Assembly: GCA_030141605.1 (NCBI GenBank)
Contig: JAQGDQ010000773.1
Coordinates: 1 to 64,000 of the forward strand
Source: Tubiluchus corallicola
Lineage: Eukaryota; Animalia; Priapulida
Direction of reading: 5' to 3'
Length of the DNA: 64,000 nucleotides
This document shows, piece by piece, positions 6,101-59,200 of the stretch; position 1 is the first letter of the stretch, and every line of letters begins with the position of its first letter. A program made the translations under genes and the position numbers. The notes under the pieces were generated by a model. That model had not been told where the DNA came from and did not search any database. It saw only the letters and a program-made list of their open reading frames with translations.

Positions 6101-9100
6101 AGCCTAACTAGTGATAAACTAACATAATTTTCAACAGCAAAAATATTCCACGAGCGTATTGCACGCGTTTGCGAAAGCGAAAATTGAAGTACAGTGCTAG
6201 TAAAGCTAGGCAAGTTTTAAGATAAAAATTCAGATTTCAGATTTACTGCTGTGCTCATGCATAAGCTGTCAAACTTGTGTAGTTCATCACAAATTAATGC
6301 ATCTGAACTGAGAGGTACAGCACCTGTTTTTGTGACAACGCGTTTCCGAAATGCAGGCGCTAGTGCAGTCTAACTAGAGATTGGTGTAATGCATGTAACA
6401 GCGAAAAACTAGTGGCGCGAACGTAAAATTATGTTTGTGTGGTAGTAATTCTTTCACATTTTTGGAAAAATAGTGTTTCCTTTCATTATTTTACAGAGTA
6501 GATTGTTTTGACCTACAGTTTAAGATTGGGTCCAGTTTGGCTTCCTACAGTTTAAGATTGGGTCCAGTTTGGCTTCCTACAGTTTAAGATTGGGTCCAGT
6601 TTGGCTTCCTACAGTTTAAGATTGGGTCCACTTTGGCTTCCTACAGTTTAAGATTGGGTCCAATTTGGTTTCCTACAGTTTAAGATTGGGTCCAGTTTGG
6701 CTTCCTACAGTTTAAGATTGGGTCCACTTTGGCTTCCTACAGTTTAAGGTTGGGTCCAGTTTGGCTTCAACTATAATTATTGCTGCTGTGACATTTCAGA
6801 TTTTAAATCTACGGTGTTGGAAGATGAACGTCAACAAAAACAAAAACCTGACATGACTGGTTGTCGTAACGGTTTTTACAACAATGCTTACTACACCGTA
6901 TATCATTTAGTGACTCACGCAGAAGATATGAATTCTGCTGACCAGTTACTCTTCACGATTGTAAGTAATCACCGAGTTAATGTGCTTGGAATATAATTAT
7001 TAAAATTTTGAATTCCTGCCATTTTAATTGTCACAGTACTGGTTTCAACTGAGGCCTTTCTATTGTCACAGTACTGGTTTCAATTGAGGCCTTTCCATTG
7101 CCACAGTACTGGTTTCAATTAAGGCCTTTCTATTGTCACAGTACTGGTTTCAATTGAGGCCTTTCTATTGTCACAGTACTGGTTTCAATTAAGGCCTTTC
7201 TATTGTCACAGTACTGGTTTCAATTGAGGCCTTTCTATTGTCACAGTACTGGTTTCAATTGAGGCCTTTCTATTGTCACAGTACTGGTTTCAATTGAGGC
7301 CTTTCTATTGTCACAGTACTGGTTTCAATTGAGGCCTTTCTATTGTCACAGTACTGGTTTCAATTGAGGCCTTTATATTGTCACAGTACTGGTTTCAATT
7401 GAGGCCTTTATATTGTCACAGTACTGGTTTCAACTTAGGCCTTTCTATTGTCACAGCACTGGTTTCAATTGAGGCCTTTCTATTGTCACAGTACTGGTTT
7501 CAATTGAGGCCTTTCCATTGTCACAGTACTGGTTTCAATTGAGGCCTTTCTTTTGTCACAGTACTGGTTTCAATTGAGGCCTTTCTATTGTCACAGTACT
7601 GGTTTCAATTGAGGCCTTTCTATTGTCACAGTACTGGTTTCAATTGAGGCCTTTCTATTGACACAGTACTGGTTTCAATTGAGGCCTTTCTATTGTCACA
7701 GTACTGGTTTCAATTGAGGCTTTCTATTGTCACAGTACTGGTTTCAATTGAGGCCTTTCTATTGTCACAGTACTGGTTTCAATTGAGGCCTTTCTATTGT
7801 CACAGTACTGGTTTCAATTGAGGCCTTTCTTTTGTCACAGTACTGGTTTCAATTGAGGCCTTTCTATTGTCACAGTACTGGTTTCAATTGAGGCCTTTAT
7901 ATTGTCACAGTACTGGTTTCAATTGAGGCCTTTATATTGTCACAGTACTGGTTTCAACTGAGGCCTTTCTATTGTCACAGTACTGGTTTCAATTGAGGCC
8001 TTTCCATTGTCACAGTACTGGTTTCAATTGAGGCCTTTCCATTGTCACAGTACTGGTTTCAATTGAGGCCTTTCCATTGTCACAGTACTGGTTTCAATTG
8101 AGGCCTTTCCATTGTCACAGTACTGGTTTCAATTGAGGCCTTTCCATTGTCACAGTACTGGTTTCAATTGAGGCCTTTCTATTGTCACAGTACTGGTTTC
8201 AATTGAGGCCTTTCTATTGTCACAGTACTGGTTTCAATTGAGGCCTTTCTATTGTCACAGTACTGGTTTCAATTGAGGCCTTTCTATTGTCACAGTACTG
8301 GTTTCAATTGAGGCCTTTCTATTGTCACAGTACTGGTTTCAATTGAGGCCTTTCTGTGTTTTATGCTTTTTATTTCAGCAGGTTCACTAAATCCTCGCTT
8401 AACGACATCCCATTTTGTGACTAATCGTTTTAACAGACAATGAAATCTTCCCACCCATTTTCTCATGTATCAAGGAATGATTTTAACGACGATTTTCCTA
8501 TTCTACATGTTTAACATTCTGTCATTTTAACGGCAGGCTTGCCGAATTCCAAACAGCAGCTGGTAAGACAAATGTTATGTACAGAAATAAGTTTAAGTAA
8601 CGCAGTATAGCAAGTAAAACTGGTAAATTGTTGATATGTTACTATTATTATTTTATATCATTGCACCATAACAGATACAGCCATACACACATATGCACAA
8701 AATATAACAAGAAATATTTAGTATAAACACACACACGAAAAAGAAATAAACAATTTACAAAAATGAGGCAGTACATATCATTAATTTTTCTTGTTATTCA
8801 CTGATAATCTTGAAAACATGTTAAATACATTAATAAATAGCTTCTTAACGTTCACGTTACCAATTCTCATAGATACATCATACTTTCTTCTTAAGTGACA
8901 ATAACTATTGTTAGTTAAATACATCATTAATTGAACATTATCGATCCCGAGTTTTTAATTTCTTTTAAAAATTTAATTTTCTACAATCAATTAGAAAGTT
9001 TGCAGGCATAGTACCACTGAATTCATTAAGACATGGACACTCAGTATATCAGTAAAAACTTTCTTAGGAAATTATGTTTCCTAGAAATAGATATCAGTGA

Positions 9101-12100
9101 CGCAAGGCAACTGCACAGCTCTGTAAAGATTTATCACAGCAAAGCAACTGCACAGCACTGTAAAGATTCATCACAGCAAAGCAACTGCACAGCACTGTAA
9201 AGATTCATCACAGCAAAGCAACTGCACAGCACTGTAAAGATTCACACAGCAAAGCAACTGCACAGCACTGTAAAAATTCATCACAGCAAAGCAACTGCAC
9301 AGCACTGTAAAGATTCATTACAACAAAGAAATTGTACAGCACTGTGAAGATTCACCACAGCAAAGAAACTGCACAACACTGTGAAGATTCATCACAGCAA
9401 AGCAACTGCCCAGCACTGTAAAGATTCATCACAGCAAAGCAACTGCACAGCACTGTAAAGATTCATCACAGCAAAGCAACTGCACAACATTGTAAAGATT
9501 CATCACAGCAAAACAACTGCACAGCACTGTGAAGATTCATCACAGCAAAGAAACTGCACAGCACTGTGAAGATTCATCACTGCAAAGAAATTGCACAGCA
9601 TTGTAAAGATTCATCACTGCAAAGAAACTGCACAGCACTGTAAAGATTTATCACAGCAAAGCAACTGCACAGCACTGTAAAGATTCATCACTGCAAAGAA
9701 ACTACACAGCACTGTAAAGATTTATCACAGCAAAGCAACTGCACAGCACTGTAAAGATTTATCACAGCAAAGCAACTGCACAGCACTGTGAAGATTCATC
9801 ACAGCAAAGAAACTGCACAGCATTGTAAAGATTCATCACTGCAAAGAAACTGTACAGCACTGTAAAGATTCATCACTGCATAGAAATTGCACAGCATTGT
9901 AAAGATTCATCACTGCAAAGAAACTGCACTGCACTGTGAAGATTCATCACAGCAAAGAAACTGCACAGCATTGTAAAGATTCATCACTGCAAAGAAACTG
10001 CACAGCACTGTAAAGATTCATCACTGCATAGAAATTGCACAGCATTGTAAAGATTCATCACTGCAAAGAAACTGCACTGCACTGTGAAGATTCATCACAG
10101 CAAAGAAACTGCACAGCATTGTAAAGATTCATCACTGCAAAGAAACTGCACAGCACTGTAAAGATTCATCACTGCATAGAAATTGCACAGCATTGTAAAG
10201 ATTCATCACTGCAAAGAAACTGCACTGCACTGTGAAGATTCATCACAGCAAAGAAACTGCACAGCATTGTAAAGATTCATCACTGCAAAGAAACTGCACA
10301 GCACTGTAAAGATTCATCACTGCAAAGAAACTGCACAGCACTGTAAAGATTCATCACTGCAAAGAAACTGCACAACACTGTAAAGATTCATCACTGCAAA
10401 GAAACTGCACAACACTGTGAAGATTCATCACTGCAAAGAAATTGCACAGCACTGTAAAAATTCATTACATCAAAGAAATTGCACAGCACTTAAAAATTCA
10501 TTACAGCAAAGAAATTCTTCCATTGAGCAATGAAGCCAACTTTCGGGGTGCTATCTGAACCCATAAGTTTTATAGATTTTCTTGTTACTTTTGAATTACT
10601 GCATAGCTAAGAAAAGTTATTCTTGATAAAAAGAATTTCATGAGGGCCATGAGGCTTGTCAAAACTGCACCATTTTTGTGTGTCTTTTAGACAGCTGGGT
10701 TCTTGCTGAAACTTCTCGACGACTCCGGTTTCTTCAATGTTGATTCTCTGCAGTTAGAAGATAAATTGTACATAGGTAAGTTAGAAGATAAATTGTACAT
10801 AGGTGAGTTACAAGATAAATTGTACATAGGTGAGTTAGAAGATAAATTGTACATAGGTAAGTTAGTAAATAAATTGTGCATAGGTAAGTTAGTAGATAAA
10901 CTGTGCATAGATAGGTTAGTAGATAAATTGTACATAGGTAAGATAGAAGATAAATTGTACATAGGTAAGTTAGAAGATAAATTGTACTTAGGTGAGTTAC
11001 AAGATAAATTGTACATAGGTGAGTTAGAAGATAAATTGTACATAGGTGAGTTAGAAGATAAATTGTACATAGGTAAGTTAGTAAATAAATTGTGCATAGG
11101 TAAGTTAGTAGATAAACTGTGCATAGATAGGTTAGTAGATAAATTGTACATAGGTAAGATAGAAGATAAATTGTACATAGGTAAGTTAGTAGATAAATTG
11201 TACTTAGGTAAGTTAGTAGATAAATTGTACATAGGTAAGTTAGTAGATAAATTGTACTTAGGTAAGTTAGTAGATAAATTGTACATAGGTAAGTTAGTAG
11301 ATAAATTGTACATAGGTAAGTTAGAAGATAAATTGTACATAGGTAAGTTAGTAGATAAATTGTACATAGGTAAGTTAGAAGATAAATTGTACATAGGTGA
11401 GTTAGAAGATAAATTGTACTTAGGTAAGTTAGAAGATAAATTGTACATAGGTGAGTTAGTAGATAAATTGTACTTAGGTAAGTTAGTAGATAAATTGTAC
11501 ATAGGTAAGTTAGTAGATAAATTGTACATAGGTAAGTTAGTAGATAAATTGTACATAGGTAAGTTAGAAGATAAATTGTACATAGGTAAGTTAGAAGATA
11601 AATTGTACATAGGTAAGTTAGAAGATAAATTGTACATAGGTAAGTTACAAGATAAATTGTACATAGGTAAGTTAGAAGATAAATTGTACATAGGTAAGTT
11701 AGAAGATAAATTGTACATAGGTAAGTTAGAAGATAAATTGTACATAGGTGAGTTACAAGATAAATTGTACATAGGTAAGTTAGAAGATAAATTGTACATA
11801 GGTAAGTTAGTAGATAAATTGCACATAGGTAAGTTAACTTGCTCTCCTGTTATTATATCTCAAGGTGACATTGTAATTTGCATAGTTTTTAATCAGCTTA
11901 TTTTACATGCACAACAGTGGCAGCTCATGCATAGGCACTGTGGAGCTGCACCACTCCTACTTTCACTCGATATTATCAATAATATTCAATATAATCAAGC
12001 CGTTTTTCTTTAGTTCTTTTTTTATACTTGTACGGAAGCAGAGCACATGAGGGTAGTACTGTTTGCTTCACAGCCCAGCACAGTGCACTCCAGCACACAT

Positions 12101-15100
12101 GTGAGCATAGGTAGAGAAACACATTTAGCTCACACAGTTTGTTGTCAGTTGTCACATACTTACCATGAATGGATTTCACTTAAAGTGCGACAATTTAGCC
12201 TATTCGTAAGCAAAAAATTTTTTTGTTTAGGATTTTATCAAGTTTTTTTTTATCATGTATAAACTTTCGTATATTTACTTGTTTAAAATTACAATTACAA
12301 ATTACAACATTAAAATTATGTAATTATATTTGTCTCATTTTATACAGTATTAAAACAAGGGCTAAAAATTTTCTGAAGCAGCGCCCCAGTAATTTTAACT
12401 ACGAGCCGCCACGGAGACACACAGTGAAACAATAAGTGACATACTCCAAGAAAGAATTCTGATTTGATCTACGCTTCTTTCGTTCACATGTCTACTTCAG
12501 TTTTTTATCATATGTAAAACTACTGCTCTTTCTGCTATATTCAGGGTGCATAAGATTATGGATATGTATAAAATAAATAAAATAGCTTATTTTATGGATT
12601 TTTGAAATTTTATTTTATGGATATCAATAAAATAAGAAATAGACTATATTTGGAACGAGATGCCCAGGGGGAAATCAATTAAAAAGTAAAAACAGGAGTG
12701 CTTGAAACGTGTTTTTAAACACACAGGACTTAGTTTTAATTTTATCAGTTTCATATCACTTCAAATTTAATCAAATTTTACGAGACAATGCCTTGTAATT
12801 CATCACTTCAGTTCAAATAATTCATCTATTTGGGACGAATGTAGAAAATGCCCTCTAGGCTGAAGTTTCCGATCCAATGCCTGTATTCAGTTTTGATTGC
12901 CTTATTTTGTACAAAAAATCACAAAAAAAATATTTTTTATTTTATGCATTTCTTATTTTTGGATTTTTCAAATTTTATTTTATGGATTTTTGGTCTTATT
13001 TTATGGATATCAATAATCTTATGCAGCCTGGCTATATTCCTGCTTAGAAAATTTACATTTTTGTACTGTTCATGAAACATTACTTTTCATTACATTTTTT
13101 TATGAACGTAGGTTCCTTGTTGTATCGACATTGTCAACAACTTGTGTGCAATGCCCATGCGATCACTGCATTACAAGCTTCAGATGCACTGCCCCTTGGT
13201 GATGAAGCCATGTTTGAAGAAGAGGAGCAGATTCGGATAGCCACGGCAATCTACCCGTCTGCCAGCCTAATGAATCACGCTTGCGATCCAACTATTATAA
13301 ACAGGTAATCATTATTAGGAAAGATAAGAAACCATTTTTAAATAAATCTAAATAAAACTAAACAAACTAAAATTAATTGTCCTGTGGTTCGTAGTTAATT
13401 TTGCTTTTTCAAACTATTTACAGAGGCATGTGTATGTTAGCGAATGTGCAATTTTTTTTAGCTCAGCCTGTGACTCCGATTTAAAATTTTCAAGGCTTTT
13501 AAAAGAGATCTGTTTATCAATTAATGTTGCAGTTGCAAGTACAAGTCTTGTGATAATGTAATTTTTTTAAACTTTACTTGATCATTTTCACTTTAAATTT
13601 TGACACTGCAATGAATGTGTGCTTTTGTTACTATGAGAGAAAGACGTTTAACTTCAACTGGAAAATGTCAGTGTTTTTATTTTTTAGTTTTGATGGAAGC
13701 ACGTTAGTCGTAAAGGCTGTGAAAGATGTTGAAAAAGGCCAGGAGGTGTACAACTGCTATGGTAAACTTTGTAAATAAAATATTTGCTAATTTTTGGCAG
13801 AGTTAGTTCAACTGAAAACTTCAAAAAGATATAACGATTTTTGATTCGTTTAACGAAAAGAATGGCACATTTACAATTTAAACAGTTCAACTCTTTTCAA
13901 ATTATGGCTTAAGAAGGACATCACACTTACAACAATTAGTTTAACGGTTAATTAATTAAAGAAAGAGGCACTGAAAAATTGTGCACAAACCAGGATTCGA
14001 ACCCAGAACCTCCTGCTTACATGGCTGGCTGCTCTACCATTTCAGCTGCACATAGTACTGAATCTAGTTTACTTGGACGGTTGTGGTAGGGCCGGAATCT
14101 AGCTGATTATTAAGGCTATCAAGTGGACAAAGGTGTCTTAGGCACATTTGCAAGTACAATTATATTTAAGCCCTCCCTGAACAAGATTAACAGCTGCTTG
14201 GAGTATGGTAGACGAAGCATAGAACTACTTTTCTTGGCAGTCATCCATCTGGTTACTTACCAGATCCACTGCTTAATCTCATTACCAAGTTCACATTGTG
14301 TTTACTCAGGTATTTCCTCACCATTTGAAGAACTTTTACGAGTATGTATGTGGAATTGGGAAAAATGAGTGATAGGAAACTTTGTCTCCAAACAGTGACC
14401 TTCTGGTCTCCCACTCCTCAAACAATGACCTTCTGGTCTCCCACTCCTCAAACAATGACCTTCTGGTCTCCCACTCCTCAAACAATGACCTTCTGATCTC
14501 CCACTCCCCAAACAATGACCTTCTGGTCTCCCACTCCTCAAACAATGACCTTCTGGTCTTCCACTCCTCAAACAATGACCTTCTGGTCTCCCACTCCTCA
14601 AACAATGACCTTCTGGTCTCCCACTCCTCAAACAATGACCTTCTGGTCTCCCACTCCTCAAACAATGACCTTCTGGTCTTCCACTCCTCAAACAATGACC
14701 TTCTGCTCTCCCACTCCTCAAACAATGACCTTCTTGTCTCCCACTCCCCAAACAATGACCTTCTGGTTTCCCACTCCTCAAACAATGACCTTCTGGTCTC
14801 CCACTTCTCAAACAATGGCCTTCTGGTCTCCCACTCCCCAAACAATGACCTTCTGGTCTCCCACTCCTCAAACAATGACCTTCTGGTCTCCCGCTCCCCA
14901 AACAATGACCTTCTGGTCTCCCACTCCCCAAACAATGACCTTCTGGTCTCCCACTCCCACATGGTTTGCAATTCACAGAAATTTCTAAAGTGAAAATATG
15001 TAGTAGTACTTATCACTATTGAAACGTTTTAATTTCGGAAAGCAAGCTGAAAATTACTTAGTAACATTACCGTGTTTTATCACTTGCTTTGTTCTATATT

Positions 15101-18100
15101 GCATTTATTTTACTTGCATTTTTTTTCATCAGGACCTCATTTTCGCCGAATGCCTTTACAGGAGAGACGAGACTCCTTACAACAGCAATACAAGTTCTTT
15201 TGTCAATGCACAGCTTGCATACAAGGAGATGAAGACATGAAATTATATGAAGTAAAATGAAAAATATAATTTATAGTGTATTGGATTTTTAAAATACCAA
15301 GTATTTTTATTTGCACTGAAACACAGGAAATGTATCTTGCCATTTATTCAGTTAAAATTGGCCAGTTTGTTGAACTTGGTGAAGATTTATAGGTTTTAAT
15401 CTTGTGTTTTGGATAAGAGCAGTAGCATTGTCATTGGCGTAATTACACACCCCTGCAGTTGCAGTTGTCCTTGGTTGTAAAGAACTGCCAAGGACACAAA
15501 AATATTGCATAATTACATTTACTTGGTACTTTTGCTTACTTGAAATGAATAACAGGAAAAATTTAAAGACAATTTGAGACAGTTTTATAACTGATTTGTG
15601 CTGATTTGAAAAATGAGTAGGTTGCATAAATTTTACCAATGAATGCTGGGGGCTCACTGTATTATTTTACAGGAAACTTCCCAAGTGTGAAGCTATACTA
15701 CTAGGTGTGGTTTGCTTTGATAGCAGGAAACTCCATAGTTTGAAAATCTCAAAGTTGGATTTATTGTTTGTTTTTATCAGTTTTGTGTCAAGAAAGCAAT
15801 GATATGTGAGTTAAGTGCGATTCTTAGAGTAGTTTTAATCATAATTGTTTTTTATGGGAACCGCTAAAGTTTTCTGACTGATGTAATTCTAGTATAAATA
15901 CAAATTTAATCAAATTATTCATCATACAGTTGTCATAAGTAGTAGACAGGACCATAGATAATGCCGTTTTAGCTTTAATATTTGTTAAACTTATGATACG
16001 GATTAGTTCATTTTCTGTTAACAGGCTCAGCTGTGTAGTGCCTGCAGCGGCCCAGTTGTAAATTTGGTGTGTCGAGATTGCAAAAGCGAAATTGATGCTG
16101 AAAAGAACTTTCAGGTACGTTTATGATGTGTGACACGTTTTATTCAATAAATATTGATAATAAATAATACGAAAACTGATTAGATGCATAGTAAAGAAAC
16201 AAGATGTACCTATTTTCATAGAGAGCAAACTGTTTCATGTAAGAAACTGTACATAATGATGATTCAATATCTATCAATTTAGGCAGTGAATTTTGTAATT
16301 TGTTGAAGTCGTTCTACACTGATATAGGCAATTGTAGTTGTAGTTTGATTAAAACTACGTTTTCAATGCAACTATCTTTTAAGTGTAGTAATTTATCATT
16401 TTTATGTAGCTGGCTATATTTTTTCTATACCTTATCCATCGCGGTATTTTAGGAAATAAGTACTTTGAGCTCTATGAAGAATTTTTATAGTAGACCTGCA
16501 TATACATGTATATAACCAGACAGCATGCGTGATGAATAATACTTTCCAATTGGAAGGTTGTGGGTTCAATACTGTGGCTGTGGTATGTCATTTGACTGGT
16601 GCTGCTGTCATTGCTGTCTTTGGAAGGTTGTGGGTTCAATACTGTGGCTGTGGTACGTCATTTCACTGGTGCAGCTGTCATTGCTGTCTTTGGAAGGTTG
16701 TGGGTTCAATACTGTGGCTGTGGTACGTCATTTGACTGGTGCAGCTGTCATTGCTGTCTTTGTGGTTCTTTTGTAACAAAAATCTCTTTATGAAGAATTA
16801 TAATAAAATTTTGAATTTATCTATTATGAATTTCTGTTATAAAGTTGTAGTTTGATCTTTACTGTCGGTTTTAAACTTCTTCATACTCTGAAAGTTCGAA
16901 TTATTTGTCAGATTTAATGACGACTATAAATAAAAATATTTTTTATCATTATAATAATATTTTTCATGTGGCTTAAATTACTTAGCACATTTTTTAATTA
17001 GCAGGTGATCAAGCACGCTCATGAATTACGCCACGAAGGTGTAACCAAGCTTCAGAGTGGTGATAACAGAGATGCTTTAGAGATGTTTTTGAAAAGTGCT
17101 GCATTGTTGGAGAAAGTACTCTATAAACAAAACAAAGAGTTAGCTATTGCATGGGATGCTATTGCCAAGTGCTATGCACAATTAGGTATTTGCTATTCTG
17201 TGACTAAAATTATTAAACTTAGATGAGATGTCTTTAATCAAACTTTAAGGTTTCAGATTATAAACCAAGATTAAGAACAGAATATAGCTAAAGTAACTTC
17301 TGAAAAGAGGAGAAAACTTTGGGAAAGGTATTAGTGTGAACAAGCCTTAAATCACTTCAAGGGCAAGAAAAGGGGTACCTGAAGTAGATTTCAGAAAAAT
17401 TGCCTTTAAAAATTATATTACTTTATAGTAGTTTTATGCGTATATCTTACTCGAGTTGAAAGGATTTTCGGTTTTTCATTTTAAATTTCCCCGCTACTGC
17501 TTCGACCACGCAAGTACGTGATGTCACTACGCACACTGTAGATCAGAAAAAGAAAAGACAATGTTAAACTATGCCCCAAAAGACTTTCCATGCAAAGTTA
17601 TATTACTTAGCTTATCACTTACTTGCTTGAAAGAGTTATGTAACTGGAAAAGAAAATTATTAATTATTTAAAATGTTTTCACCAATTGGTAAAATGTCGC
17701 TGACTCACCTTCCAGGGTGCACCACTCACTAACCAAAAGCGTATTTTTAATCTTGTTGACAAGATACAGTAATTTAAAATTTGTACTTAGTGACGTGCAC
17801 ACTACGAAAGCTCTGATTATTTTATCAAACTTTACTCATTGTTATCTAAACTTGTTTCAAATGACTTATTGCCAAAATGGCTGCATGTAACGGTCATTGC
17901 GAGAGTTTAAATTTACATATTTTATACAGTGTTACTGCCCATGCAAGCCCTGTATGCAAAAGGGCAGTATGTAAGTGTTTCAAAACGAATTTTTAAGCTT
18001 CATGTAAGTGGTTGTGGTTTAAAGCAACACGTGAAAATCTATTGTAAATGTGACTAAAGTCTTTCTTATTTTTTTAGATGCCAGTCGTATCAAAACAACG

Positions 18101-23389: not shown

Positions 23390-23709
23390 TAAGTAAGCAA
23401 GTAAATAAGTGAGTGAGTAAATAAGAAGGTAAGTAAGTAAATATGTAAGTAATTAAGTAAACAAGCAACTAAATAAGTAAGTAAGTAATTAAATAATTAA
23501 GTAAGCAAGTAACTAAATAAGTAAGTTATTTTGTTTCAAACACAAGGTTAAGAAAACATATGTACATCGAAACATTTAAATTTACAGAAATTATAAGATT
23601 AATAAAATAAATGTTCACAAGTTAGCGTCTTGTACAAAATACAGCAAATCACAAGCGATAAATTTACCTAATCTGACCTTATGAACTCAGCCTATATTGT
23701 CTGCAAATA
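23390..23709 (+). repeat. Direct repeat copy 1 (AAGT/AAAT microsatellite + ~185-bp unique core), upstream of the GPCR
   Basis: Core ttattttgtttcaaacacaag...cctatattgtctgcaaata is roughly 90% identical by eye to 26193-26377. Confidence 0.9.
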
Positions 23710-23741
23710 GAGTCACCCATCCTTGGTAACTGGGATAAAAA

Positions 23742-23895
23742 TTCGTACAAGCCTGCTTTTACAAAGGTGTAGAAATATTTATCCATCCTTTTAGTGCAGA
23801 TAACATTTGTACACGTCTGCTTTTACAAAGGTGTAGAAATATTTATCCATCCTTTTAGTGCAGATAGCATTTGTACAAGTCTGCTTTTATAAAGG
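23742..23895. repeat. 64-bp tandem repeat x ~2.3
   Basis: ctgcttttacaaaggtgtagaaatatttatccatccttttagtgcagata repeated. Confidence 0.85.
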
Positions 23896-41200: not shown

Positions 41201-44200
41201 TAGTATGTTTCGTTTCAATATTTTAAAGAGTGGATAGTATTGAGCTACAGTTTATTTAACATTGAGTCCAGTTTTGCTTTAACATTGAAGTGTGTTGTAA
41301 CACTTCATACATAAATTTAGCACCAACAAAACAAATGATGTAATCTTTTACAGTTATGCAAGAAATTCTCGTAGTAATTGGCAATAGCCTTTATTCTGAC
41401 GAAACATGAGACTCCAAGTTGCCTTATGTTTTGAAGTACGAAACAGTAGGTGAAGTCATGCAGGACCTTACTAGATTCTCTTTTTAAATTCAACTTTGCT
41501 ATTTTCGTTTCAGACATGACTAGTGTAGTCAACGTTTGAACAATAACAGGTCACTCTTACATAAATCTCACGAAAGCTGGGGTCAAGTCATCGAAAAAAT
41601 GACTGAAAGTATCACTCCGTATTTTCCACTGACATCTCACCTGTTCCCCTCCTTTGGTCTTTCACGTTCTGCATCCCGCTCCTTTTCACCTTCTCTCCGG
41701 CGCTCCTTATCTGGTCTACCGTACTGATCTGCTGCTCTTCGACTTCTGTCCTGTTCTCTGTCTCCCTCTCGATACTGCTGTCTGTAACATGAAACATAAA
41801 CTAGCATTCTAAAACACTGTACCTTTGGACCTGCATTGATTTTGATTCTATGAAAACAACAAAAATGTTTTGCTGATCAAACGTTGCTAACTTGAAAAAA
41901 TCAAACACTACTGACTTAAAGTAGGTCTAATTATTAGCTGTTGCCTTTTCACACCATAAATGTTGGCATAATAAAAATGCTACCAAGTTCTGCTCACAGA
42001 TGAAAGGCTAACTCCTTCAGGACCATACGTTTTTACTGCATTTTGCATGGGTTCATGAAAAACTGCTCTCACTAACATTATATTTGATCATTTTTGCGGG
42101 TTTCTACGCCTCGCACTAAGCACTTTGCAAAATTATATATAAAATGCATTTGCTTACCTTAGACAAATTAAAAATCGATTACTGACGAATAAATAGAAAA
42201 AAGCTTCAGTAACTATAGTGCTTGCACTGTAACAATGTACAGTATCACTTGTGCAAAATCAGCTAATGTAGAAAATTTCAATTGTCCACACACAACACAC
42301 TAATAGACTTTAGTCTCACGTCTGCTCTGTTTTTAATGAGAAATTGCTGCTAAAAGAAAAAACGACATCAGTTTGTCCTGGGCTGATCAGTTGGTTTTTC
42401 CTAGAATAGCAGCAAAACACTGCACAGCTTGGCTGTAGGAAGCAGTCGATCAATAAAATAGTGTGTACGATCACGCAAGTGTACACCAGACTAAGCTACT
42501 CAATTGGCTAAGTTGGAATGCCTGAAGAGGACGTGTTTTTCTTAATTTTATTAAATTAAATCACTTATAAATGTTTAAACAAATAGCATGATTAGACAGC
42601 CTAGACTCCTCTGAATAGAAGAGTACCTAATTTGTTATCATTTAGTTATGTCTGTACTCATACAGTAGCAGGAAAGTCATAGGTCTTATAAGACCTATGT
42701 GAATCGAATGGTACAGTCCTGAAGAAGTTAGTGACTGAATCTCAATAGAAAAGAACACACGTCAATAAAACTGCCAAGAATGAGTTGGTTTCCTCACCTC
42801 CCATCTTCGTGATCACGTTCTCTTCTGCCTCGTCCACGCTCTTCATGTCTTCTCTCGTCTCCATTTCTAGATCTGCCTGCAGACTGCGGTCGGTCATCTG
42901 TAATTCTCTCTCTCCTTCGTCCACCAGATTGGGGACGCTCGTCTAAATCTCTTTCCCTCCGCCTGCTGCCAGATGCTGGCATCTCTTCTCCATCTCTTCT
43001 CCTTCCAGAAGAGTGAGGTCTCTCTTCTAATTCTCTTTCCATTCTTCTTCCGGTAGAGTGAGGTCTGTCCTGTAGGTCTCTTTCCCTTCGTGCAGCTGAG
43101 GGCAATCGATCATCAGCTTCTCTTTGTCGTCCAGTGGAATGTGGTCTCTCTTCACCACCGCGCTCTCTTCGTCTTCCTCCAGGTTTCGACTGATCTTCTC
43201 CATTCTTAACTTTGTTGGGCAGCTGCTGTCTGTCTTTTTCCACTAGCTCCTCGTTTTCTCGCTCTCTCCTATCTGATATTCCCCTGGTTCGTCTTTCGTA
43301 CTGTTCTCTGTCACCGTACCTTTCCCTTTCGCGTCGTTCTTGTCCGCCCCTGACTTTATCGGATCGTTCCCTTGTCCGTGACTTCATAGCTTCCTCTTCC
43401 AGAACTCTTTCCCTCACTGTTGAATCTTGACCTCCTCTGCCTTCCTTGCTGCGTTCTTCTCGTCTTTCGCCTCTTCTATGCGGAGCCGATCCTTGCTGAG
43501 CTTTTCCTCGAGGTTGCCTAGCGGGAGACACGCTACTTGCTGGACTTTCCTCTTCATCTGAAAAATCGCCCGAATCACGAGTAACTGCTATCATTGGAAT
43601 GGGAACACTACCGGGATAGACTTCTTTATCACTCAAATCCTCATCTTCATCTACCATTATCTGGTCTTGATGAAGAGGAAGCTCGCCGCTCAAGGGCATT
43701 GTTTGAATTCGCTCACCATCAGGTATACCTCTGCCACTGTCTTTCACCTATAAAAACATGCCAAATAGCAAAAGTTAATAGTTATGGCAAAACTAAAAAC
43801 GTATAGCAAGAATTCTACACTAGAAAGGTGCTAACTTGAAATATGCTTATATTTTTAGAACCAAACACAATGAAACACAAGCTTACCAATCTCCTAGTGC
43901 CATCAGTTTCTCTTTGCGGCACGTGCCGTTCGTGTCTGCTACTTCGGTCGATTCCGGTCTCCATCTGCGTTCTTTTAAGCTGATCTGCATTTGGTCCAGC
44001 GCTCCCTTGTGGTGACATCGGTGATCTTCCGCTCTGCATTGTTTGGTCGCCCTGTTTACGCAACTGAGGAACTGAGACGGCGTGACTTTTACCATCCATG
44101 GATGTCCGCTGGCCTGCCATGTCTGTGTTAGAATACGAAAGTTCAAAAGTATGAAGAAAACAATTTGAATCATCATAATTGTTTTACAGGCAGTCCTCGA

Positions 44201-47200: not shown

Positions 47201-50200
47201 TTCAAAAACAGACAAAGTTAGTGCAGAAATATCAGAAGAGTTGAAGTTGTACTAACACACAACAAGAAACACAACAGGAATCGGGTAACACCAGTTATGT
47301 CCATTGTCCATTTTTCCGCAAGGGCAAAACAATGGAAATTTAATGGCCAGACAACCTAGCCGACTGAGCAACTATTTTCACAAACGTCTGACTATCATGT
47401 CACCACTAACTGTTAGGTGAGCTCTGTACTCTTTGGCGCTGTTTCAGACCTTGGCGGGTCTTAACAGAGTTCTGGATAGTTTAGTCAAAAAACTATCTGT
47501 AAACTATGCTATTAAAACGCTGTTTGGCACTGCGGTTTACAAAACTGTAGGAAACCAAGAAGAAATTACAGCAGCTAGCAAAGTCTCAGCTTATGGTAAA
47601 GTAAAAAAGAATCAGAAATTACAATAGTACAGTTACAAGTTTCATTGTTGTGCCTGATTAACTTGCTGGCCATACAGAAATTTCACTTTTTTACACAATA
47701 TTTGTTAATTTTGTTACAATGAGTATTTGCAGGTAAAAACAGCCAGCAGATCTATTAAGAAGGGTTCTTAAGTTTTGTAATGATCATATTTTTGTGTCAG
47801 GATCATTTTTGGGTTTCGTGCGTTTTCGGAAAATTTATTAAGTGTTTTATGCTGTTTTGTTTAGTAAATGAAGCCTTTTTCACGGGACCCCAGCAGATTT
47901 TTCTCAAAAGTTAAATTATTTGCTTACTTAAACAAAAACAGCCAACATCTTCAAATAGCTAATAAAAAATCCAAACGAAACATGTTATTTATGCAAATGA
48001 TGGATGTAAACTTATTGTGCGCTAATGATATTTGTAAATAAATTGTGTAAAATTCCACGCAGCAGCAAGTCATAGCACAGCTGGAACAATAGGTTGCCAT
48101 GGTGTTTGTAACACGCAGCTGCTATGTTCATTGTCCTGCTGTATCTTCTAATATCACACTGCCAGAATGGGCATTGCTAAAGTTGGCGTTGCTATGGTGA
48201 CTGAGCAATTTTTTGTCTGCCATCTAGGGTCGAGTTAAAGAAACAATGCAAAGTGTGTAATTGCACTATTTGCAGTCGTATGAATTCTTAAAAGGCTTAC
48301 TGACAGGTGAACAGCAAAATTTGACAACAACAAAATTCTATAGTATAGAAGCCTAATAGTTGTATTACGTGAAAACAGTTGTGTTGCACAAAAACAGTTG
48401 AGCAAGAAATAAATAAAAATAGCGTATAGTGTATACTATCGGGAAACTGAATACTCTGCAAAAATTACAGCAATAATGAGCTTACAAGACTGTGGAATGA
48501 GATGTATCAAACTAGCTAGGTGTACTGACCAAATTCTTTCAACAAGCTTTCCAATATCAACATCATAGACCGTGCATTTATGTAAACATACCTGCAAAAT
48601 ACTCTGCGCAGAGATCCGTGCTCGGTGATCATGACTGTACTCGGGCATTTCTTCCTCTTGTTCCTCGGCAATGTCCGACAGTTCGGAACGGTCACTGCTG
48701 TCCGTGTTATAATCGTCCGGTCGGAATGGCCGTATTTTGGCCTCTGCTGAAGTAGCATCATCAGAAGTGTCGTCACTACTGGTGGAAAACATGCCTGGAA
48801 TTGTCTAAAAGCAACAGCACAAATCACAATTACCATTTAGACAGTTAAACATGCCTGACACAAAGCTTTTTATGACAAAGTCGCTCAATTAAAGTGAAAA
48901 ACAGCAAAGAAAAAGCCTAAATCGCTCTATAAAAAAATTGAGACTTTTTGCTTAGCTTACCGGAACAGGTCCTGGCTTGATTGGACTGTTGATACAAGTT
49001 TCAGGCAATGTTGTACCAAGTGGAAGCACTGATTGCGCATGAGGTAAAGGTGCAGCTTTTGAATCTGAAGACTGAGTTTCGTATGACAAGGTCCGTACGG
49101 TTAATGTGTGAGGGGCCATTCCACGAAACTGAGCTTTGTCAATAAGAACGTGATCAGCTAAAAAACAAATAGTATTAGCAAACAAAAAACAAAACAAAAC
49201 AAAACAAAAAACAAACAAAACAAACAAAAAACAAAAAAACAAAAAAAAAAACAAAACAAAACAAAACAAAAAACAACAAAACAAAAAACAAAACAAACAA
49301 AACAAAAAACAATTAATCAATAACAATTAGTATCATAGAAAACTTGATTAATCAAAAAAAACAAACAAAACAAACAAAAAACAAACAAAACAAAAACAAA
49401 AAACAAAACAAAACAAAACAAAAAACAAAAAAACAAACAAAAAACAAAACATAACAATTAGTATCATAGAAAACTTGATTAATCAATAACAATTAGTATC
49501 ATAGAAAACTTGATTAATCAGTAACAATTAGTATCATAGAAAACTTATTAATCAATAACAATTAGTATCATAGAAAACTTATCATAGAAAACTTAATTAA
49601 TCAATAGCAATTAGTATCACAGAAAACTTAATTAATCAATAACAATTAGTATCATAGAAAACTTGATTAATCAATAACAATTAGTGTCATAGAAAACTTG
49701 ATTAATTAATAACAATTAATATAATAGAAAACTTAATTAATCAATAACAATTAGTATCATAGAAAACTTAATTATTTAATAACAATTAGTATCATAGAAA
49801 ACTTAATTAATCAGTAACAATTAGTATCATAGAAAACTTAATTAATCAGTAACAATTAGTATCATAGAAAACTTAATTAATCAATAACAATTAGTATCAT
49901 AGAAAACTTGATTAATCAATAACAATTAGTATCATAGAAAACTTGATTAATCAATAACAATTAGTATCATAGAAAACTTGATTAATCAATAACAATTAAT
50001 ATCATAGAAAACTTAATTAATCAATAACAATTACTATCATAGAAAACTTAATTATTTAATAACAATTGGTATCATAGAAAACTTAATTAATCAGTAACAA
50101 TTAGTATCATAGAAAACTTGATTAATCAATAACAATTAGTATCATAGAAAACTTGATTAATCAGTAACAATTAGTATCATAGAAAACTTGATTAATCAAT

Positions 50201-53200
50201 AACAATTAGTATCATAGAAAACTTGATTAATCAGTAACAATTAGTATCATAGAAAACTTGATTAATCAATAACAATTAGTATCATAGAAAACTTGATTAA
50301 TCAATAACAATTAGTATCATAGAAAACTTAATTAATCAATAACACTTAGTATCATAGAAAACTTGATTAATCAATAACAATTGGTATCATAGAAAACTTG
50401 ATTAATCAATAACAATTAATATCATAGAAAACTTAATTAATCAATAACAATTAGTATCATAGAAAACTTAATTATTTAATAACAATTGGTATCATAGAAA
50501 ACTTAATTAATCAGTAACAATTAGTATCATAGAAAACTTGATTAATCAATAACAATTAGTATCATAGAAAACTTGATTAATCAATAACAATTAGTATCAT
50601 AGAAAACTTAATTAATCAATAACACTTAGTATCATAGAAAACTTGATTAATCAATAACAATTAGTATCATAGAAAACTTGATTAATCAATAACAATTAGT
50701 ATCATAGATAACTTGATTAATCAATAACGATTAGTATCATAGAAAACTTGATTAATCAATAACAATTAATATCACAGAAAACTTAATTAATCAATAACAA
50801 ATAGTATCATAGAAAACTTAATTATTTAATAACAATTAGTATCATAGAAAACTTAATTAATCAGTAACAATTAGTATCATAGAAAACTTGATTAATCAAT
50901 AACAATTAGTATCATAGAAAACTTGATTAATCAATAACAATTAGTATCATAGAAAACTTAATTAATCAATAACAATTAGTATCATAGAAAACTTAATTAT
51001 TTAATAACTCAACAGTTATTTATAAAACTAGGTTACAGACTTACAATTAGATGTTGCCTTATTAATTGTAGCTATCGTTAATTAGATTTTATGATTTTTA
51101 CCGAAAGCTTTAAACACATTAAAAAAAAACTTTCTTTACTGTTTGTTATCTAAAATGGCCTAACATTTAAAAATGACTTAAAGGAAGACATGATTTTTCA
51201 CATACCACCTCATTTTCAAGTCCGATAAAAAGTGTACATTTTAGCACAATTAATACTGGAAAAACGTTTCTGATGAATAAATAATAGATAAAAATTTAAT
51301 TAATGGCAGACGTGCCAAACTATCGATTACTTCACAAATTAACAATAGCAAAAATATTCCACAAGCATGATGTAATTGCAAAAGTGAAAATTGAAATACA
51401 GTGCTACTGTAAGATATTCAGTGTATAAAACTAGGTAGGTTTTAAGATAAAAATTCTAATTTCAAATTTACTGCTGTGCTCACGCACGAGCTGTCAAACG
51501 TGTGCAGTACGTCACATTTGAACACATCTGAAATGAGAGATACAGCACCTGTGCAACACGTTTCCGAAATTGTGTCCTGTTTTGCTGTAAAGCTTTATTG
51601 CACTAGAAACCAGATTTCATCTGTTTTTCTTGTTACACATTCGTCATATTTAACGAGAGGGACAACGGTGACTGTTTCTCAGAGAAAAGTCCTGCACTGA
51701 AGACTTGTACTCAACTACATTATCGCTAGCTGTGTCCTAGAGCCATTAATGAAGTTCCTTTGCAATATATAATTACCAGAAACATTTTTGGTCATTATCA
51801 TAGCTAATAAAGGGCGTATTTTAGACTACAGGTCAAGATTAGGTATGATCAAAAAATCGTTTTAGTTTAATGTTTAGGCTACTACTACAAGATGACCATC
51901 GATCATTGTTTATTTCACAGTGTGACTTACTAGACGGGCTTTCAATTGCGGTCACTTTGCGTCCGTCTGCAAAAATTGCGTAACCCGTAACAACAGCACC
52001 ATTAGAAATGCCAGAATTGCTGGCAACCGGCATCCACGTGACAAGCAACGTGCCGTCTTGAGGACCTGCTTCAACTTGCACATCTGCTGGAGGGTCTGGA
52101 ACTCCTATTGCAAATAAGAAAACAACACAGTGGTAAATGAAATACCAAACTTTCATTAAATTATTGCTATACGTATTCAACACGATTTATAAGAATGAGA
52201 AACGGCCCTTCGGGGGAGAGACATAGTCGCTCTTTCTGGCTGTTAAACATTACTTAACTTATCAAAAGTGGGTGACTTGTTTTAATAATTATGGCTATAC
52301 TTGGAAAAAGGTTTCTTACATAGTTTCCTATAAAGTATCCTACATATATTATGAGGTATTTCAGGTAATTTTCAAATTAAATTTAGCTGAAAACTTAAAT
52401 TTTGAATTTCACCTCAGAATACCACACAAGTTAAACTGTGATATCATCAGGGCAAAGTCCACCAATGCAAATAATGCAAAAATTGAATCCATCTTTGCAA
52501 TACTTTTACATTGCAGGACACTAAAAATTTTAAGCAAGAAATTCCACCTTCCTAAGCTTCGGGCATTCGAAGTAAAGACACAGTGTTTATAGTACGCACT
52601 CTTAAACTAGACCGATTACATAAATTACCCCTTCCGGGAATATTAACACTAATAATGTTGATTTATAAATCTCCAGGTACCTCCGGAAAGTGTCTGAAAG
52701 TCAATGTGGGCAACCGTGGGTTTACTGTTTTCACTTTGGCTCTGTTTGCTTTTGGCTCTGACTGATACTGTGTACCAAGTATTGGGGGCTAAACCTGAAA
52801 ACAAATATGCATAAAATTACAATTTGAAAATGACAGCAGCAGAAAACAATTGATACTTCTCACCGGCTCCAGGTAAACAACTTCTAGTATATGTATATTA
52901 TCAGGATGGGTGTTTCCGTAAACATAAACCACTTTTCTACTTCCGTAAACAGGAACCACTTTTCCACTTCCGTAAACACAAACCACTTTTCCACTTCCGT
53001 AAACATAAACCACTTTTCGACTTCCGTAAACATAAACCACTTTTCTACTTCCGTAAACATAAACCACTTTTCTACTTCTGTAAACACAAACCACTTTTCC
53101 ACTTCCGTAAACACAAACCACTTTTCCACTTCTGTAAATACAAACCACTTTTCCATATCCGTAAACACAAACACTTTTCCACTTCCGTAAACACAAACCA

Positions 53201-56200
53201 CTTTTGCACTTCCGTAAACATAAACCACTTTTCGACTTCCGTAAACATAAACCACTTTTCCACTTCCGTAAACACAAACCACTTTTCCACTTCCGTAAAC
53301 ATAAACCACTTTTCTACTTCCGTAAACACAAACCACTTTTCCACTTCTGTAAATACAAACCACTTTTCCATATCCGTAAACACAAACACTTTTCCACTTC
53401 CGTAAACACAAACCACTTTTCCACTTCCGTAAACATAAACCACTTTTCGACTTCCGTAAACATAAACCACTTTTCCACTTCCGTAAACACAAACCACTTT
53501 TCCACTTCCGTAAACATAAACCACTTTTCGACTTCCGTAAACATAAACCACTTTTCTACTTCCGTAAACATAAACCACTTTTCCACTTCCGTAAACATAA
53601 ACCACTTTTCGACTTCCGTAAACATAAACCACTTTTCTACTTCCGTAAACATAAACCACTTTTCTACTTCCGTAAACACAAACCACTTTTCCACTTCCGT
53701 AAACACAAACCACTTTTCCACTTCCGTAAACACAAACCACTTTTCCACTTCCGTAAACATAAACCACTTTTCGACTTCCATAAACATAAACCACTTTTCT
53801 ACTTCCGTAAACATAAACCACTTTTCTACTTCCGTAAACACAAACCACTTTTCCACTTCCGTAAACACAAACCACTTTTCCACTTCTGTAAATACAAACC
53901 ACTTTTCCACTTCCGTAAACACAAACACTTTTCCACTTCCGTAAACACAAACCACTTTTCCACTTCCGTAAACATAAACCACTTTTCGACTTCCGTAAAC
54001 ATAAACCACTTTTCCACTTCCGTAAACACAAACCACTTTTCCACTTCCGTAAACATAAACCACTTTTCCACTTCCGTAAACATAAACCACTTTTCCACTT
54101 CCGTAAACACAAACCACTTTTCCACTTCCTTAAACACAAACCACTTTTCCAGTTCCGTAAACACAAACCAGTTTCCCACCCAACACGCTCCTCAAGAGAG
54201 TGAAAACAACTTCGCCACTCACCCGTTACCGTGTACTTGTAGACGCCTGCTTTTACCAATCCCACTTGTACGTTGTTCACTGACATGGCATGATCATAAC
54301 TACTGTTGCTTGGAAGCCACATAACCGTACAGGAAGTGGCCATGAGATTAAACACTTTGATCTCACTCGGTGCTAACGACAAATCTATAAAGAAAATCAC
54401 TGCTAACTGCATGACTAATACTTCAGTTGCTGGAAAATAAACGAATATGTTAATAAGACACAAAAGCTTTTCCACAAAGCAGCTAACGCAGCAATTACTA
54501 CTGAAAATGAACTACGTTTTCATACAATTTATAAGCCGGAAAGAAAATGATTATACTAAATAAACACGGGACTCAGCTGATACTAAAGTGAAGTACTTCT
54601 GTGCCATTTGCAACCAGGTGAAATAACAACAGAACTGCATAAATATAGTACAGTATAGGTTACCTTTTCCTATAATAATGGTACATGCTGGGTCTTTCGA
54701 CTGTCCCTTCTTTGTTACAGTCCTAACAGATATGCGATGATTCTAAAAAATTATACTTTGAAAAGTGAAGTAGAAGAGAAAAAACATGTTAGCGATAAAC
54801 TAAGACACAACTGAAATGATACACTGACTCAAATTCAAATCACGGAACTAAAGTTATAAGAACTTTAGAACTACAAAATTTAATACTATTAAGTAATGAG
54901 CGCTCTTTTCTAAGTATATTACATATAGATATCCATGCGGAAAGTAATTCAGTGAAACACTTGGTTATTTATGCACATCTGATTTATTTTCAATATTTTG
55001 TTTGTTCATTTTTTTAATTCTCTTAATTCAGATGCTTAAAGCACAAGAAAACCCCTTACATAAAGCTTAAAAAATTCGTCTTGAAATTTTATACCACTTA
55101 CGTGCTGCTGCCTTTTAGCATACACGGTTTGCGTCGTCCGTAACGCTGTATAAAACTTGTAAATTTAAACTCCCGCAATGATCTTGAGGCCATTTTGATG
55201 GTAGGTCGATTGAAACAAATTTAGATAACACTGAGTAAAATTTGAAAAAATAATCAGAGCATGCACATGTTGCTAACTAAGTAAAATTTTAAATTACTGT
55301 ATCTTGTCAATAAGATTAAAAATACTTTTTGGTTAGTGAGTGTGGAGGGTGAGTCCAAATTTTACCAAATTGGCACGAACATTTTAAATTATTATTTCTA
55401 GTTACACAAGTCTTTTAAGCAGGTAAGTGAATTACAGATTTGCATGGAAAGTTGTTTGGGACATAATTTAACATTGTTTTTTCTTCCCCTGATTTACGTT
55501 TGCGTTTGTGAGGTCATGTAATGGCGACTTCGGAACAGTATTGCAGGAGATTATAATGAAAACAAATAAAAATTCCTTTCAAAGCGAATATGATATACGC
55601 ATAAAATTGCTGCAAAGTAATATAATTTTTTAAAGCGATTTTTCTGAAACCACTTCTGGTGCCCCTTTCTTGTCCTTCAAGAACATGTTTTTCACGAAAG
55701 CAACGTACCACATTCGAATCGATGTCTTCAAGCAATGCTTTAGTGTTCTCCCGGCCACCAACAACTGCTCGTAACTGCGCGTCAACGTAGACGTGATATG
55801 CTTCGATACCTCCAGATGGCAGCACATCGGGTGGAAGCCAACTTATAATCATGCTACGACTCAGCTGCCGCTCAAGTTGCAGGTGCGTAGGGGGAGGCAC
55901 TAAAAATTGTACACAGCTTTAAGTGTGAAATTTCCGAATCTTTTAAAAAAAATTCACTACACGTAACATACGAATATAATGATAAATTCTCATTTCTAGT
56001 TGTAGTGCCAACTCTTGACCATACTTGACCATTTGTATAAGTGCTAAATAAACCATCATTTGAAATTAACAATTGCTCTTTATGGGTTTAGGAACAAGAC
56101 TGCTCTCTCTCTCTCTGTGTTTGAAAAAGTAGTTAAATATGCAAATAGTTTTGACCACAGGAATCTCGACGGTTAAATACTGACGACAAGGCAATTGTGG

Positions 56201-59200
56201 TCAGCTTTGGTCAGCTTAAGCTTATTTTCAAATGTGTACCTTTAGGGCCCTGGTCATTTACATCATCTTCAGCTAATCGACCAAGCGCACTCATCTCTGT
56301 CATTTTCCGAATTCCCTCCAGGTGCTCCGATACCGGTTCTCTGGTCGTTTCGCCAACAGGTGACAGCTCTGTTCCCGGCGATGGCCTCTGCTGCTTTGTG
56401 GTTTCTAGACAGAATAAGGGCCAGTTCACACTTTCACGCATTAGATCAAGAAGTCAACATGAAGTCAAGCTACTCGGGGGTGGGTGGGTAAATTTTTACT
56501 AATATAAGCACTTTCGGCTGCACATACAAAATATACATTATAACGTTAGCAAGTTCAACCTAACGTTTAGAGCCCAGAGCCATGCCATTTCAGCTGTGCT
56601 CCAGCCGGTTTATTTCTACAACTGACTTAGCTTTAGTCGCACCAGTCGTAGAGTGACGAGAGTCGAGCTAGCCGACATTTTTGCTAGCTGAGAAGATTTT
56701 CGCTCTTGCGATAATCACGTGACACTGCAAAACACTGCTTGAAATATGGCTAATGCATTGCGGATTCGCAGTCAGATTGTGTTGTCAGAGATACTAAACT
56801 TTAGAAATTTTTGAACGATAAAGCTGGTAAATTTAAAATTAAATATGCAAACAGGTAACGTTAGTCACACGTACAGGATCATTTTGGGGTTTCAGTATCG
56901 ATACGTCGGTAAGCAAGATGAGCCTCGTCAAGAGTTGGATTTAAATCATATTTGCATTAAATCCATTGCTTTTTTATAATGATAAAACATTAATCTCTAA
57001 TGCTTTATTTCAATTTGTACATCAGCTTATGTTCTGTGTATAAACTGCACTAATTATTTAAAAAAATTGTCTCCATAATTTAACAATTAATTAACTATTT
57101 ATCATTTATTTAGTTAACAAAAATTTCTAGTTTTAGTTGACTTAGCTGATTTTTTTCTTTAAGACAACTCAGCTGAAAAGTCAGTCAACTTCAGCCGAGC
57201 TAGCTGGGTTACTGTGTGAGCCAGATGATGCAGTAGCAAGTGACTCATCTTCAGCCCAGCTAGCTGATTTACTGTGTGAGTCACCTGATGTAGTAGCAAC
57301 TGACTCATCTTCAGCCGAGCTAGCTGATGTACTGTGTGAGTCAGCTGATGTAGTAGCAACTGACTCATCTTCAGCCTAGCTAGCTGATTTACTGTGTGAG
57401 TCAGCTGATGTAGTAGCAACTGACTCATCTTCAGCCCAGCTAGCTGATTTACTGTGTGAGTCAGCTGATGTAGTAGCAACTGACTCAGCTTCAGCTGAGC
57501 TAGCTGATTTACTGTGTGAGTCAGATGATGCAGTAGCAACTCACTCATCTTCAGCCGAGCTAGCTGATTTACTGTGTGAGTCAGCTGATGTAGTAGCAAC
57601 TGACTCATCTTCAGCCTAGCTAGCTGATTTACTGTGTGAATCAGCTAATGTAGCAGCAACTGACTCATCTTCAGCTGAGCTAGCTGATTTACTGTGTGAG
57701 TCAGCTGATGTAGTAGCAACTGACTCATCTTCAGCCTAGCTAGCTGATTTACTGTGTGAGTCAGCTGATGTAGTAGCAACTGACTCATCTTCAGCCGAGC
57801 TAGCTGATTTACTGTGTGAGTCAGCTGATGTAGTAGCAACTGACTCATCTTCAGCCGAGCTAGCTGATTTACTGTGTGAGTCAACTGATGTAGTAGCAAC
57901 TGACTCATCTTCAGCCGAGCTAGCTGATTTACTGTGTGAGTCAGCTGATGTAGTAGCAACTGACTCATCTTCAGCCGAGCTAGCTGATTTACTGTCGTGA
58001 GTCAGCGGATGTAGTAGCAACTGACTCACCTTCAGCTTAGCTAGCTGATTTACTGTGTGAGTCAGCTGATGTAGTAGCAACTGAGTGATTTACTGTGTGA
58101 GTCAGCTGATGTAGTAGCAACTGACTCATCTTCAGCCTAGCTAGCTGATTTACTGTGTGAGTCAGCTGATGTAGTAGCAACTGACTCAGCTTCAGTCTCT
58201 ACTAATGCTGCACCTGCTGGCCTTCCAGTCGTCAGCTCAAAACACACACACAATCAAAACTGCCCATTTCAAAGAAATAATGATTATCCTACTGTACTAT
58301 ATACAGCACACTCACCTTCCTCCTTGACTTGATCCGACGTCAGAAATCCAAAACCACCGCATATCCAATTGCTACATTGAGGCGAAGCTTTGCTCTCCGA
58401 TGATATTATTTGACTAGGTGCTGTAGTAACTACATTCGATATACAGCTACTGGGAATTGGCGAAGTTTTCGGACTTTCTTTCTTTGTGCAAACTGAAAAA
58501 AATGTTAATCATTAAACAAAATCACCGAATCTTTGAGGAATAAACATAAGGTATTTTCTTATAATACAAAATTCCTCATACAGTAATGAAAAAGCTGTTC
58601 TGTTGTTTATAGTTAGTAGGAAGCCATACACTTGACATTATTCTTGCTTAGCACCGGCTATGTTTAATACAATGAATTCTGAAAAAGCTAAAGTAAATGG
58701 CATTCTATAGTCAGCTTAACTACACATTACACAACGCAGACATTCAGATGCAGTAGTAGATGAAAAATTCTATGCAGGTAATTTTGACAAGCTTCTTGAC
58801 TGGTAGAATGACAATTATCCAAAATTCCAGTTATTTCAAATAAAACATGTGATCTTTTTACTTGCATAATTAACTTAATATTAACTTACACCATTATAAA
58901 CATGCTTGAAGACCACTCAAGTGTAGCTTCTAAATGAACAATGATGGCTACTAACAACTATGTAGCTTTCACACGATCTTTAAAAGGACATTACTCACTG
59001 CCCAACATAATAACTTCCGTTTAATCGTCAATTTGAACTCTATGGACACAAGTTTTGCAGCAAAAGACCATGAGTTTGATACTCAAATGGGCCCTGCTCT
59101 GACGTGGTGCTGGATATGACGTTGGACCTTGAATAAGACACTTCAGTAACTGCCATGACGCCTCTAACAAGAAAAATTAACCAGAGATCAGCAGCAAAAA

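Follow-up and report, generated by a model that had tools for sequence, protein, structure and literature searches.

Two genes in a 64,000-nucleotide stretch of the genome of the priapulid Tubiluchus corallicola (GenBank assembly GCA_030141605.1, contig JAQGDQ010000773.1, positions 1 to 64,000 of the forward strand; hereafter the window) each carry a minisatellite whose repeat unit spans an authentic 5' splice site. One lies in a SMYD4-like gene and the other in a RIMBP2-like gene, and both belong to a set of 13 mutually unrelated arrays. These are probably locus-specific minisatellites, two of them of the type called 'mirages' in amphioxus, which likely arose by local duplication at near-random positions, likely grew stepwise and likely persisted with the first donor still in use. 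Judged by three sequence features, the two junction arrays are new examples of the known mirage, or donor-spanning minisatellite, type: the unit spans an exon-intron boundary (in two of the 13 arrays), the first unit is the authentic junction, and the splice signal is repeated in later units.

Two arrays span true donor sites

Exon models built from homologue matches were the basis for all claims about splice sites. Both gene models are open from end to end, with GT-AG borders in all 37 introns.

193-19722, forward strand: SMYD4-like gene, 17 modelled exons, 706 amino acids (aa) in a single open frame, 16 GT-AG introns, 5' end incomplete
35261-61239, reverse strand: RIMBP2-like gene, 22 modelled exons, 1491 aa, 21 GT-AG introns, 5' end incomplete

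The SMYD4-like protein is approximately 39% identical to its best homologues. The RIMBP2-like model contains Ig_RIMBP2 and SH3 domains; its domain exons are supported by homologue alignment, and its linker exons by frame continuity only. The 37 modelled donors (median score 8.1, minimum 2.6) and the acceptors of the real introns (median 6.3, 10th percentile 2.4) provided the reference for scoring splice sites.

Running Tandem Repeats Finder on the window returned 52 rows, from which we retained 13 arrays that had a unit of 25 bp or more in a minimum of 2.4 copies. Microsatellites and units below 25 bp were left out, as were sub-periods and rows of only two copies (132, 45, 28, 131 and 166 bp). 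All statistics are based on these n = 13 arrays in one window. With units of 27-70 bp, they make up 15.5% of the window. A first-pass annotation of the same DNA had described about a dozen unrelated arrays in this size range, each present once, and the units are indeed confined to one locus within the window, with the exception of a 32-bp unit and of one 35-bp piece that stands apart at 49312, in the same compound array as the 35-bp repeat. The annotation was also correct that two arrays exactly straddle 5' splice sites, at 10775/10776 in SMYD4 and 40319/40318 in RIMBP2.

10752-11836, forward strand: 27-bp array, 40.2 copies; the unit joins the final 24 nt of SMYD4 exon 10691-10775 to 3 intron nt
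39719-40345, reverse strand: 46-bp array, 13.6 copies; the unit is the final 27 nt of RIMBP2 exon 40517-40319 plus 19 intron nt

Gene model and homologue alignment agree that the straddled SMYD4 donor is the true one. In both genes the joined frame is open, and its alignment with homologues continues across the array junction: in SMYD4, KLYIG-SLLYRH aligns with YIG-GLLLRH of the homologues, while the RIMBP2 exon ends at its true donor within the second SH3 domain. Because the units encode conserved protein motifs, the two arrays are, on this sequence evidence, each born at their own locus. Each array lengthens an intron that keeps its own unique 3' part. The splice signal has been retained throughout, as AG/GT in 40 of 40 copies of the SMYD4 array and AAG/GT in 14 of 14 copies of the RIMBP2 array. 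Read-through of the latter meets a stop after 8 codons. The two ends of the SMYD4 array share an identical 5 nt, a match that the donor motif itself provides.

The make-up of the SMYD4 array raises the alternative that it is a working in-frame donor ladder, in which splicing at internal donors would insert (KLEDKLYIG)n into a loop of variable length that immediately precedes the conserved SET segment. Its unit is a multiple of three (3n) and its 40 copies are all open in frame, with no indel and with AG/GT in each; 38 of the 40 donor-like sites score 9.4-11.3, above the real-donor median of 8.1. Homologues also vary by up to approximately 60 aa just ahead of the junction, at this loop, and two extra sites are used in human 6-16 and CBS (PMC1557585). 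However, chance would be enough to keep the frame open (probability 0.32 of meeting no stop), and the read-through sequence, with 11 distinct substitutions, shows no sign of coding constraint. Units of 3n length are not enriched among the arrays (6/13, P = 0.24), the RIMBP2 array persists despite placing out-of-frame decoys in an SH3 domain, and human F7 uses the first donor only. A ladder of this kind thus seems very unlikely. Splicing likely takes place at the first donor, so the donor-spanning arrays are likely harmless.

SMYD4 intron 10 also contains a miniature inverted-repeat transposable element (MITE) at 12542-13030, with an 8-bp target duplication and inverted ends of about 18 bp, which we take to be hAT-like. 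One short-read contig (run X4, depth 5.8) joins 12533 to 13031 and so carries the MITE-empty site, on account of which the insertion appears polymorphic. Short-read contigs also covered the final two copies of one array, with high depth at the array end in runs X1 and X4, although such depth does not measure copy number; in the stretch compared, contigs of runs X5 and X6 fell on repeats alone and on no exon.

Array positions relative to splice junctions

The remaining 11 arrays are as follows.

6512-6768, forward strand: 32-bp array, 8 copies, repeating a dispersed element's right end, 31 nt upstream of the acceptor at 6800
7027-8355, forward strand: 35-bp array, 38 copies, SMYD4 intron 9, 66 nt past the donor
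9102-10514, forward strand: 37-bp array, 38 copies, SMYD4 intron 9; a 4-unit block occurs three times
14389-14957, forward strand: 30-bp array, 19 copies, SMYD4 intron 12; left flank at single-copy depth in run X1
16550-16762, forward strand: 70-bp array, 3 copies, SMYD4 intron 14; every copy has a strong donor-like motif, scoring about 9
23741-23895, no strand assigned: 64-bp array, 2.4 copies, intergenic
33279-33562, no strand assigned: 33-bp array, 8.6 copies, outside modelled coding exons
35874-36043, reverse strand: 57-bp array, 3 copies, in the middle of RIMBP2 intron 21
49186-51008, reverse strand: compound array, (AAAAC)n plus a 35-bp unit in 44 copies, before the RIMBP2 acceptor at 49157
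52914-54179, reverse strand: 27-bp array, 47 copies, 43 nt past a donor
57185-58197, reverse strand: 60-bp array, 17 copies, within RIMBP2 intron 4, which it enters 118 nt past the donor

The distances from splice sites quoted in the first-pass annotation were right for the arrays that begin at 7027 and 54179 (66 and 43 nt past donors) and for the one that ends at 6768 (31 nt before an acceptor). The array at 54179 is necessarily near an intron end, because its intron measures only 189 nt once the array is collapsed. In the compound array, the 35-bp part stops 293 nt, and the array as a whole 28 nt, upstream of the acceptor at 49157. Between 49186 and 49450, (AAAAC)n is interleaved with 35-bp units as higher-order repeats of 131-166 bp, which reach the polypyrimidine side of this acceptor.

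The 60-bp array had been put forward as a possible third case straddling a 5' splice site, but it is intronic. Its recurring donor-like site scores 1.9, lower than all 37 real donors (minimum 2.6), and a stop in the frame of the gene occurs in 5 of the 16 copies scored. A junction or coding role for the repeat was rejected, as the exons flanking RIMBP2 intron 4 join in frame without it. Two single copies have strong donor-like variants (10.4 and 8.4). The 70-bp array was likewise considered as a third donor capture and rejected, since eight homologues lack a matching exon; the acceptor of its 63-nt in-frame exon candidate is not among the four top-scoring upstream sites.

An exon at 8382-8562, which would have put the 35-bp array just upstream of an acceptor, was rejected, as homologues connect 6960 straight to 10691. 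The region 8379-8562 of SMYD4 intron 9 combines an acceptor-like site scoring 11.1, 23 nt past the 35-bp array, with a donor-like site. It may represent a poison pseudo-exon, the inclusion of which would introduce an early stop.

For comparison with chance, each array was collapsed to one unit, giving 54,614 nt with 41 donors and 43 acceptors (a tentative small gene included), and the collapsed units were placed at random under three rules. Two of the 13 arrays straddle a donor, compared to 0.41-0.48 expected (P = 0.06-0.08), or 0.41-0.56 over the three rules (P = 0.06-0.10); for the two genes the figures are 2 of 11 compared to 0.45-0.65 (P = 0.07-0.13), and masking of dispersed repeats gave an expectation of 0.64 (P = 0.13). 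Straddling of any junction yielded P = 0.20-0.28, and none of the 13 arrays straddles an acceptor. Five arrays lie within 70 nt of a junction, with 2.1-3.7 expected (P = 0.05-0.29), and a threshold-free rank test of the 11 in-gene arrays returned P = 0.067 unmasked and 0.16 masked. The data had already been seen when the window and the cut-off of 70 nt were picked. The arrays lean towards junctions, but a splice-site bias is unproven at n = 13. In-window permutation did not establish the suggested bias of amplification to splice junctions, with P = 0.06-0.13 at donors, 0.20-0.28 at donors and acceptors together, and 0.012-0.29 for proximity across all array definitions.

Array birth could nevertheless be truly biased in this manner, through transcription- or spliceosome-linked breaks or through a donor consensus that supplies microhomology. 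If such a bias held genome-wide, it would link splicing signals to the sites where duplications arise. The excess of donor-straddling arrays (2 compared to about 0.5 expected), the proximity P values of 0.012-0.022 under the most favourable nulls, and the donor-derived 5-nt match at the ends of the SMYD4 array all agree with it. However, no donor-straddling test reached P < 0.05, every test weakened once dispersed repeats were masked, and alternative exons outside the model would raise the expected count; the absence of straddled acceptors and the post hoc choice of window and cut-off also tell against it. We regard a true bias as unlikely, and favour near-random local duplication, under which occasional donor capture is expected because there are approximately 41 donors in the 55 kb that remain after collapsing.

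The first-pass annotation placed six arrays in a narrow 1.0-1.6 kb band, and six do have lengths of 1013-1558 bp. Read as a signature, the band lacks support: 5.4 arrays would be expected from a uniform spread over 150-1600 bp (P = 0.47), compared to 2.6 from a log-uniform one (P = 0.03).

Proposed birth, growth and persistence of the arrays

Local sequence was shown to be the source of the unit for three of the 13 arrays, in line with an earlier count of at least three: the two exon/donor junctions and one element terminus, which gave rise to the 32-bp array.

5959-6543, forward strand: dispersed element of approximately 600 bp, with TTAA at the ends in its best copies

Further copies of this element in the window lie at 40701-41279, 60381-60999, 51178-51570 and 28408-28846. 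Beyond its own array, the 32-bp unit recurs at the ends of element copies at 41255 and 60393 and in one 17-bp match at E = 0.04. Because it is single-copy in the other two full-length copies of the element, it was amplified in place. This array bears on the idea that most of the arrays are internal repeats brought by dispersed transposons of the Helitron or MITE type. It does derive from a dispersed element, and the derivation of tandem repeats from transposons has been well documented (PMC9659126). However, it is the only one of the 13 to adjoin a dispersed repeat in the window, its unit was single in the other element copies, and the two junction units, which code for conserved protein motifs, are hence not cargo. 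Transposon cargo as the general source of the arrays is very unlikely on this in-window evidence.

Under the local duplication account, short duplications at near-random places, with little or no microhomology, would produce the seed unit. Six of the 13 arrays terminate within 3 nt of a complete unit, compared to 2.4 expected (P = 0.018; a post hoc test with ends read by hand), and together with the 5-nt match at the ends of the SMYD4 array this fits such duplications. That match is what a microhomology-seeded duplication would leave. Growth would then have proceeded by recurrent duplication of several units at once, through slippage or unequal exchange. Repeated blocks of variant units were found in the SMYD4 27-bp array (5 units; 1 of 500 shuffles), the 37-bp array (4 units; 0 of 500) and the array at 49580 (4 units; 7 of 500), while the other six of the nine arrays tested by shuffling had no significant variant block. 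Array copies deviate by 2-6% from the majority. The repeated blocks favour stepwise growth over one rolling-circle event. Of the local amplification process proposed in the first-pass annotation, local birth stands for three of 13 arrays, whereas a single rolling circle is disfavoured.

Selection would be expected to remove arrays that break exons, by analogy with the human F7 and amphioxus data, while donor-spanning arrays spare the exon and its first donor and may act as intron filler. Arrays are present in 10 of the 37 introns, including four of the five longest, and contribute 9309 of 38,909 intron nt (24%) in the two genes. Intron expansion, one of the outcomes proposed earlier, is thus borne out, but no new intron or repeat exon was shown to come from these arrays. 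Rogers-type intron gain through tandem duplication calls for a unit whose AG/GT can serve as donor and acceptor alike. AG/GT is present in the units, and their best acceptor scores are 3.2 and 3.9, compared to 6.3 (median) and 2.4 (10th percentile) for real acceptors.

Several points weigh against this account. Local origin is unproven for 10 of the 13 arrays, simple microhomology fails to account for the 36-nt overhang of the 46-bp array, and use of the first donor is carried over from other species. With regard to near-random placement, counting the compound array at 28 nt from its acceptor gives six arrays within 70 nt of a junction (P = 0.012-0.12), and the rank test under the same definition gives P = 0.022 unmasked and 0.067 masked. 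As a point estimate, donor straddling exceeds expectation 3- to 5-fold, with an upper 95% limit of approximately 45% for 2/13. A bolder proposal would join an approximately 4-fold preference for minisatellite birth at splice junctions to a SMYD4 array that acts as a heritable 40-donor in-frame ladder, tuning the loop length of a lysine methyltransferase; we find it quite unlikely.

Neighbouring features

The large RIMBP2 exon at 42798-43747 (reverse strand) contains an old, degenerate coding repeat of approximately 15 aa, rich in Arg and Glu, with no link to splice signals seen. Between the two genes, a single-exon frame for a rhodopsin-type G protein-coupled receptor occupies 24188-25129 on the forward strand (Pfam 7tm_1, E = 5e-37). 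It is flanked by two similar elements of approximately 180 bp, at 23527-23709 and 26195-26377, each adjoining an (AGTA/AAGT)n tract. A small spliced gene, for which the model is tentative, lies at 27649-32278 on the same strand and encodes a CxxC motif and a coiled-coil-like stretch; its largest exon has no Pfam match.

Comparison with known systems

The first-pass annotation did not recognise the arrays as a named system. Repeats that span exon-intron boundaries have, however, been described as 'mirages' in amphioxus (PMC3087553), and five human cases are known (PMC1557585). With the T. corallicola arrays there are two clean new examples of a known repeat type, in genes where minisatellites make up about a quarter of intron length. 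In the literature searched (mostly without subscription papers), no genome-wide test of minisatellite junction bias was found, only single-gene cases.

Three further systems are related in part. Microhomology-mediated tandem duplication takes place between short matches, is mostly neutral and is depleted from coding regions (PMC13167724). It fits the 5-nt match of the SMYD4 array, but covers the seed and not the growth to 40 copies, and is no simple fit for the 46-bp array; neither 'intron' nor 'splice' appears in the text of that paper. Among transposon-derived minisatellites, element termini are a common source of units, as in the 32-bp array, although this applies to one of 13 arrays here and is based on in-window evidence (PMC9659126). 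Minisatellites of human segmental duplications have units of approximately 30 bp that lengthen exons or introns, some at exon-intron boundaries (PMC2812944). Those cases rest on paralogue comparison and RNA, whereas ours rest on DNA sequence.

Amphioxus mirages are known from Adh3 (units of 10-72 bp) and the globin genes BflGb6 and BflGb9 (PMC3087553). As in T. corallicola, the units cross exon-intron boundaries and repeat the AG/GT signals. Their host is a marine invertebrate chordate. A model of intron gain has already been proposed for them, and reverse transcription PCR (RT-PCR) suggested normal splicing. They differ in that they include acceptor-side arrays, vary in length between haplotypes and somatically, and were examined by RT-PCR, whereas the arrays described here are donor-side only and known from genomic sequence.

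The five human donor-spanning variable number tandem repeats lie in F7 IVS7 (37-bp unit), 6-16, CBS IVS13, LMNB2 and PDGF (PMC1557585). They share with our arrays an authentic donor in the first unit that is repeated thereafter, and their 5-25 copies are near the 14 of RIMBP2. Splicing in F7 relies on the most upstream donor alone; 6-16 and CBS additionally employ two further sites. The SMYD4 array is unlike F7 in having 40 strong donors, a 3n unit and an open frame, and donor choice was tested in F7 but is predicted here. With its 40 strong in-frame donors, the SMYD4 array offers a natural test of the first-donor rule beyond mammals.

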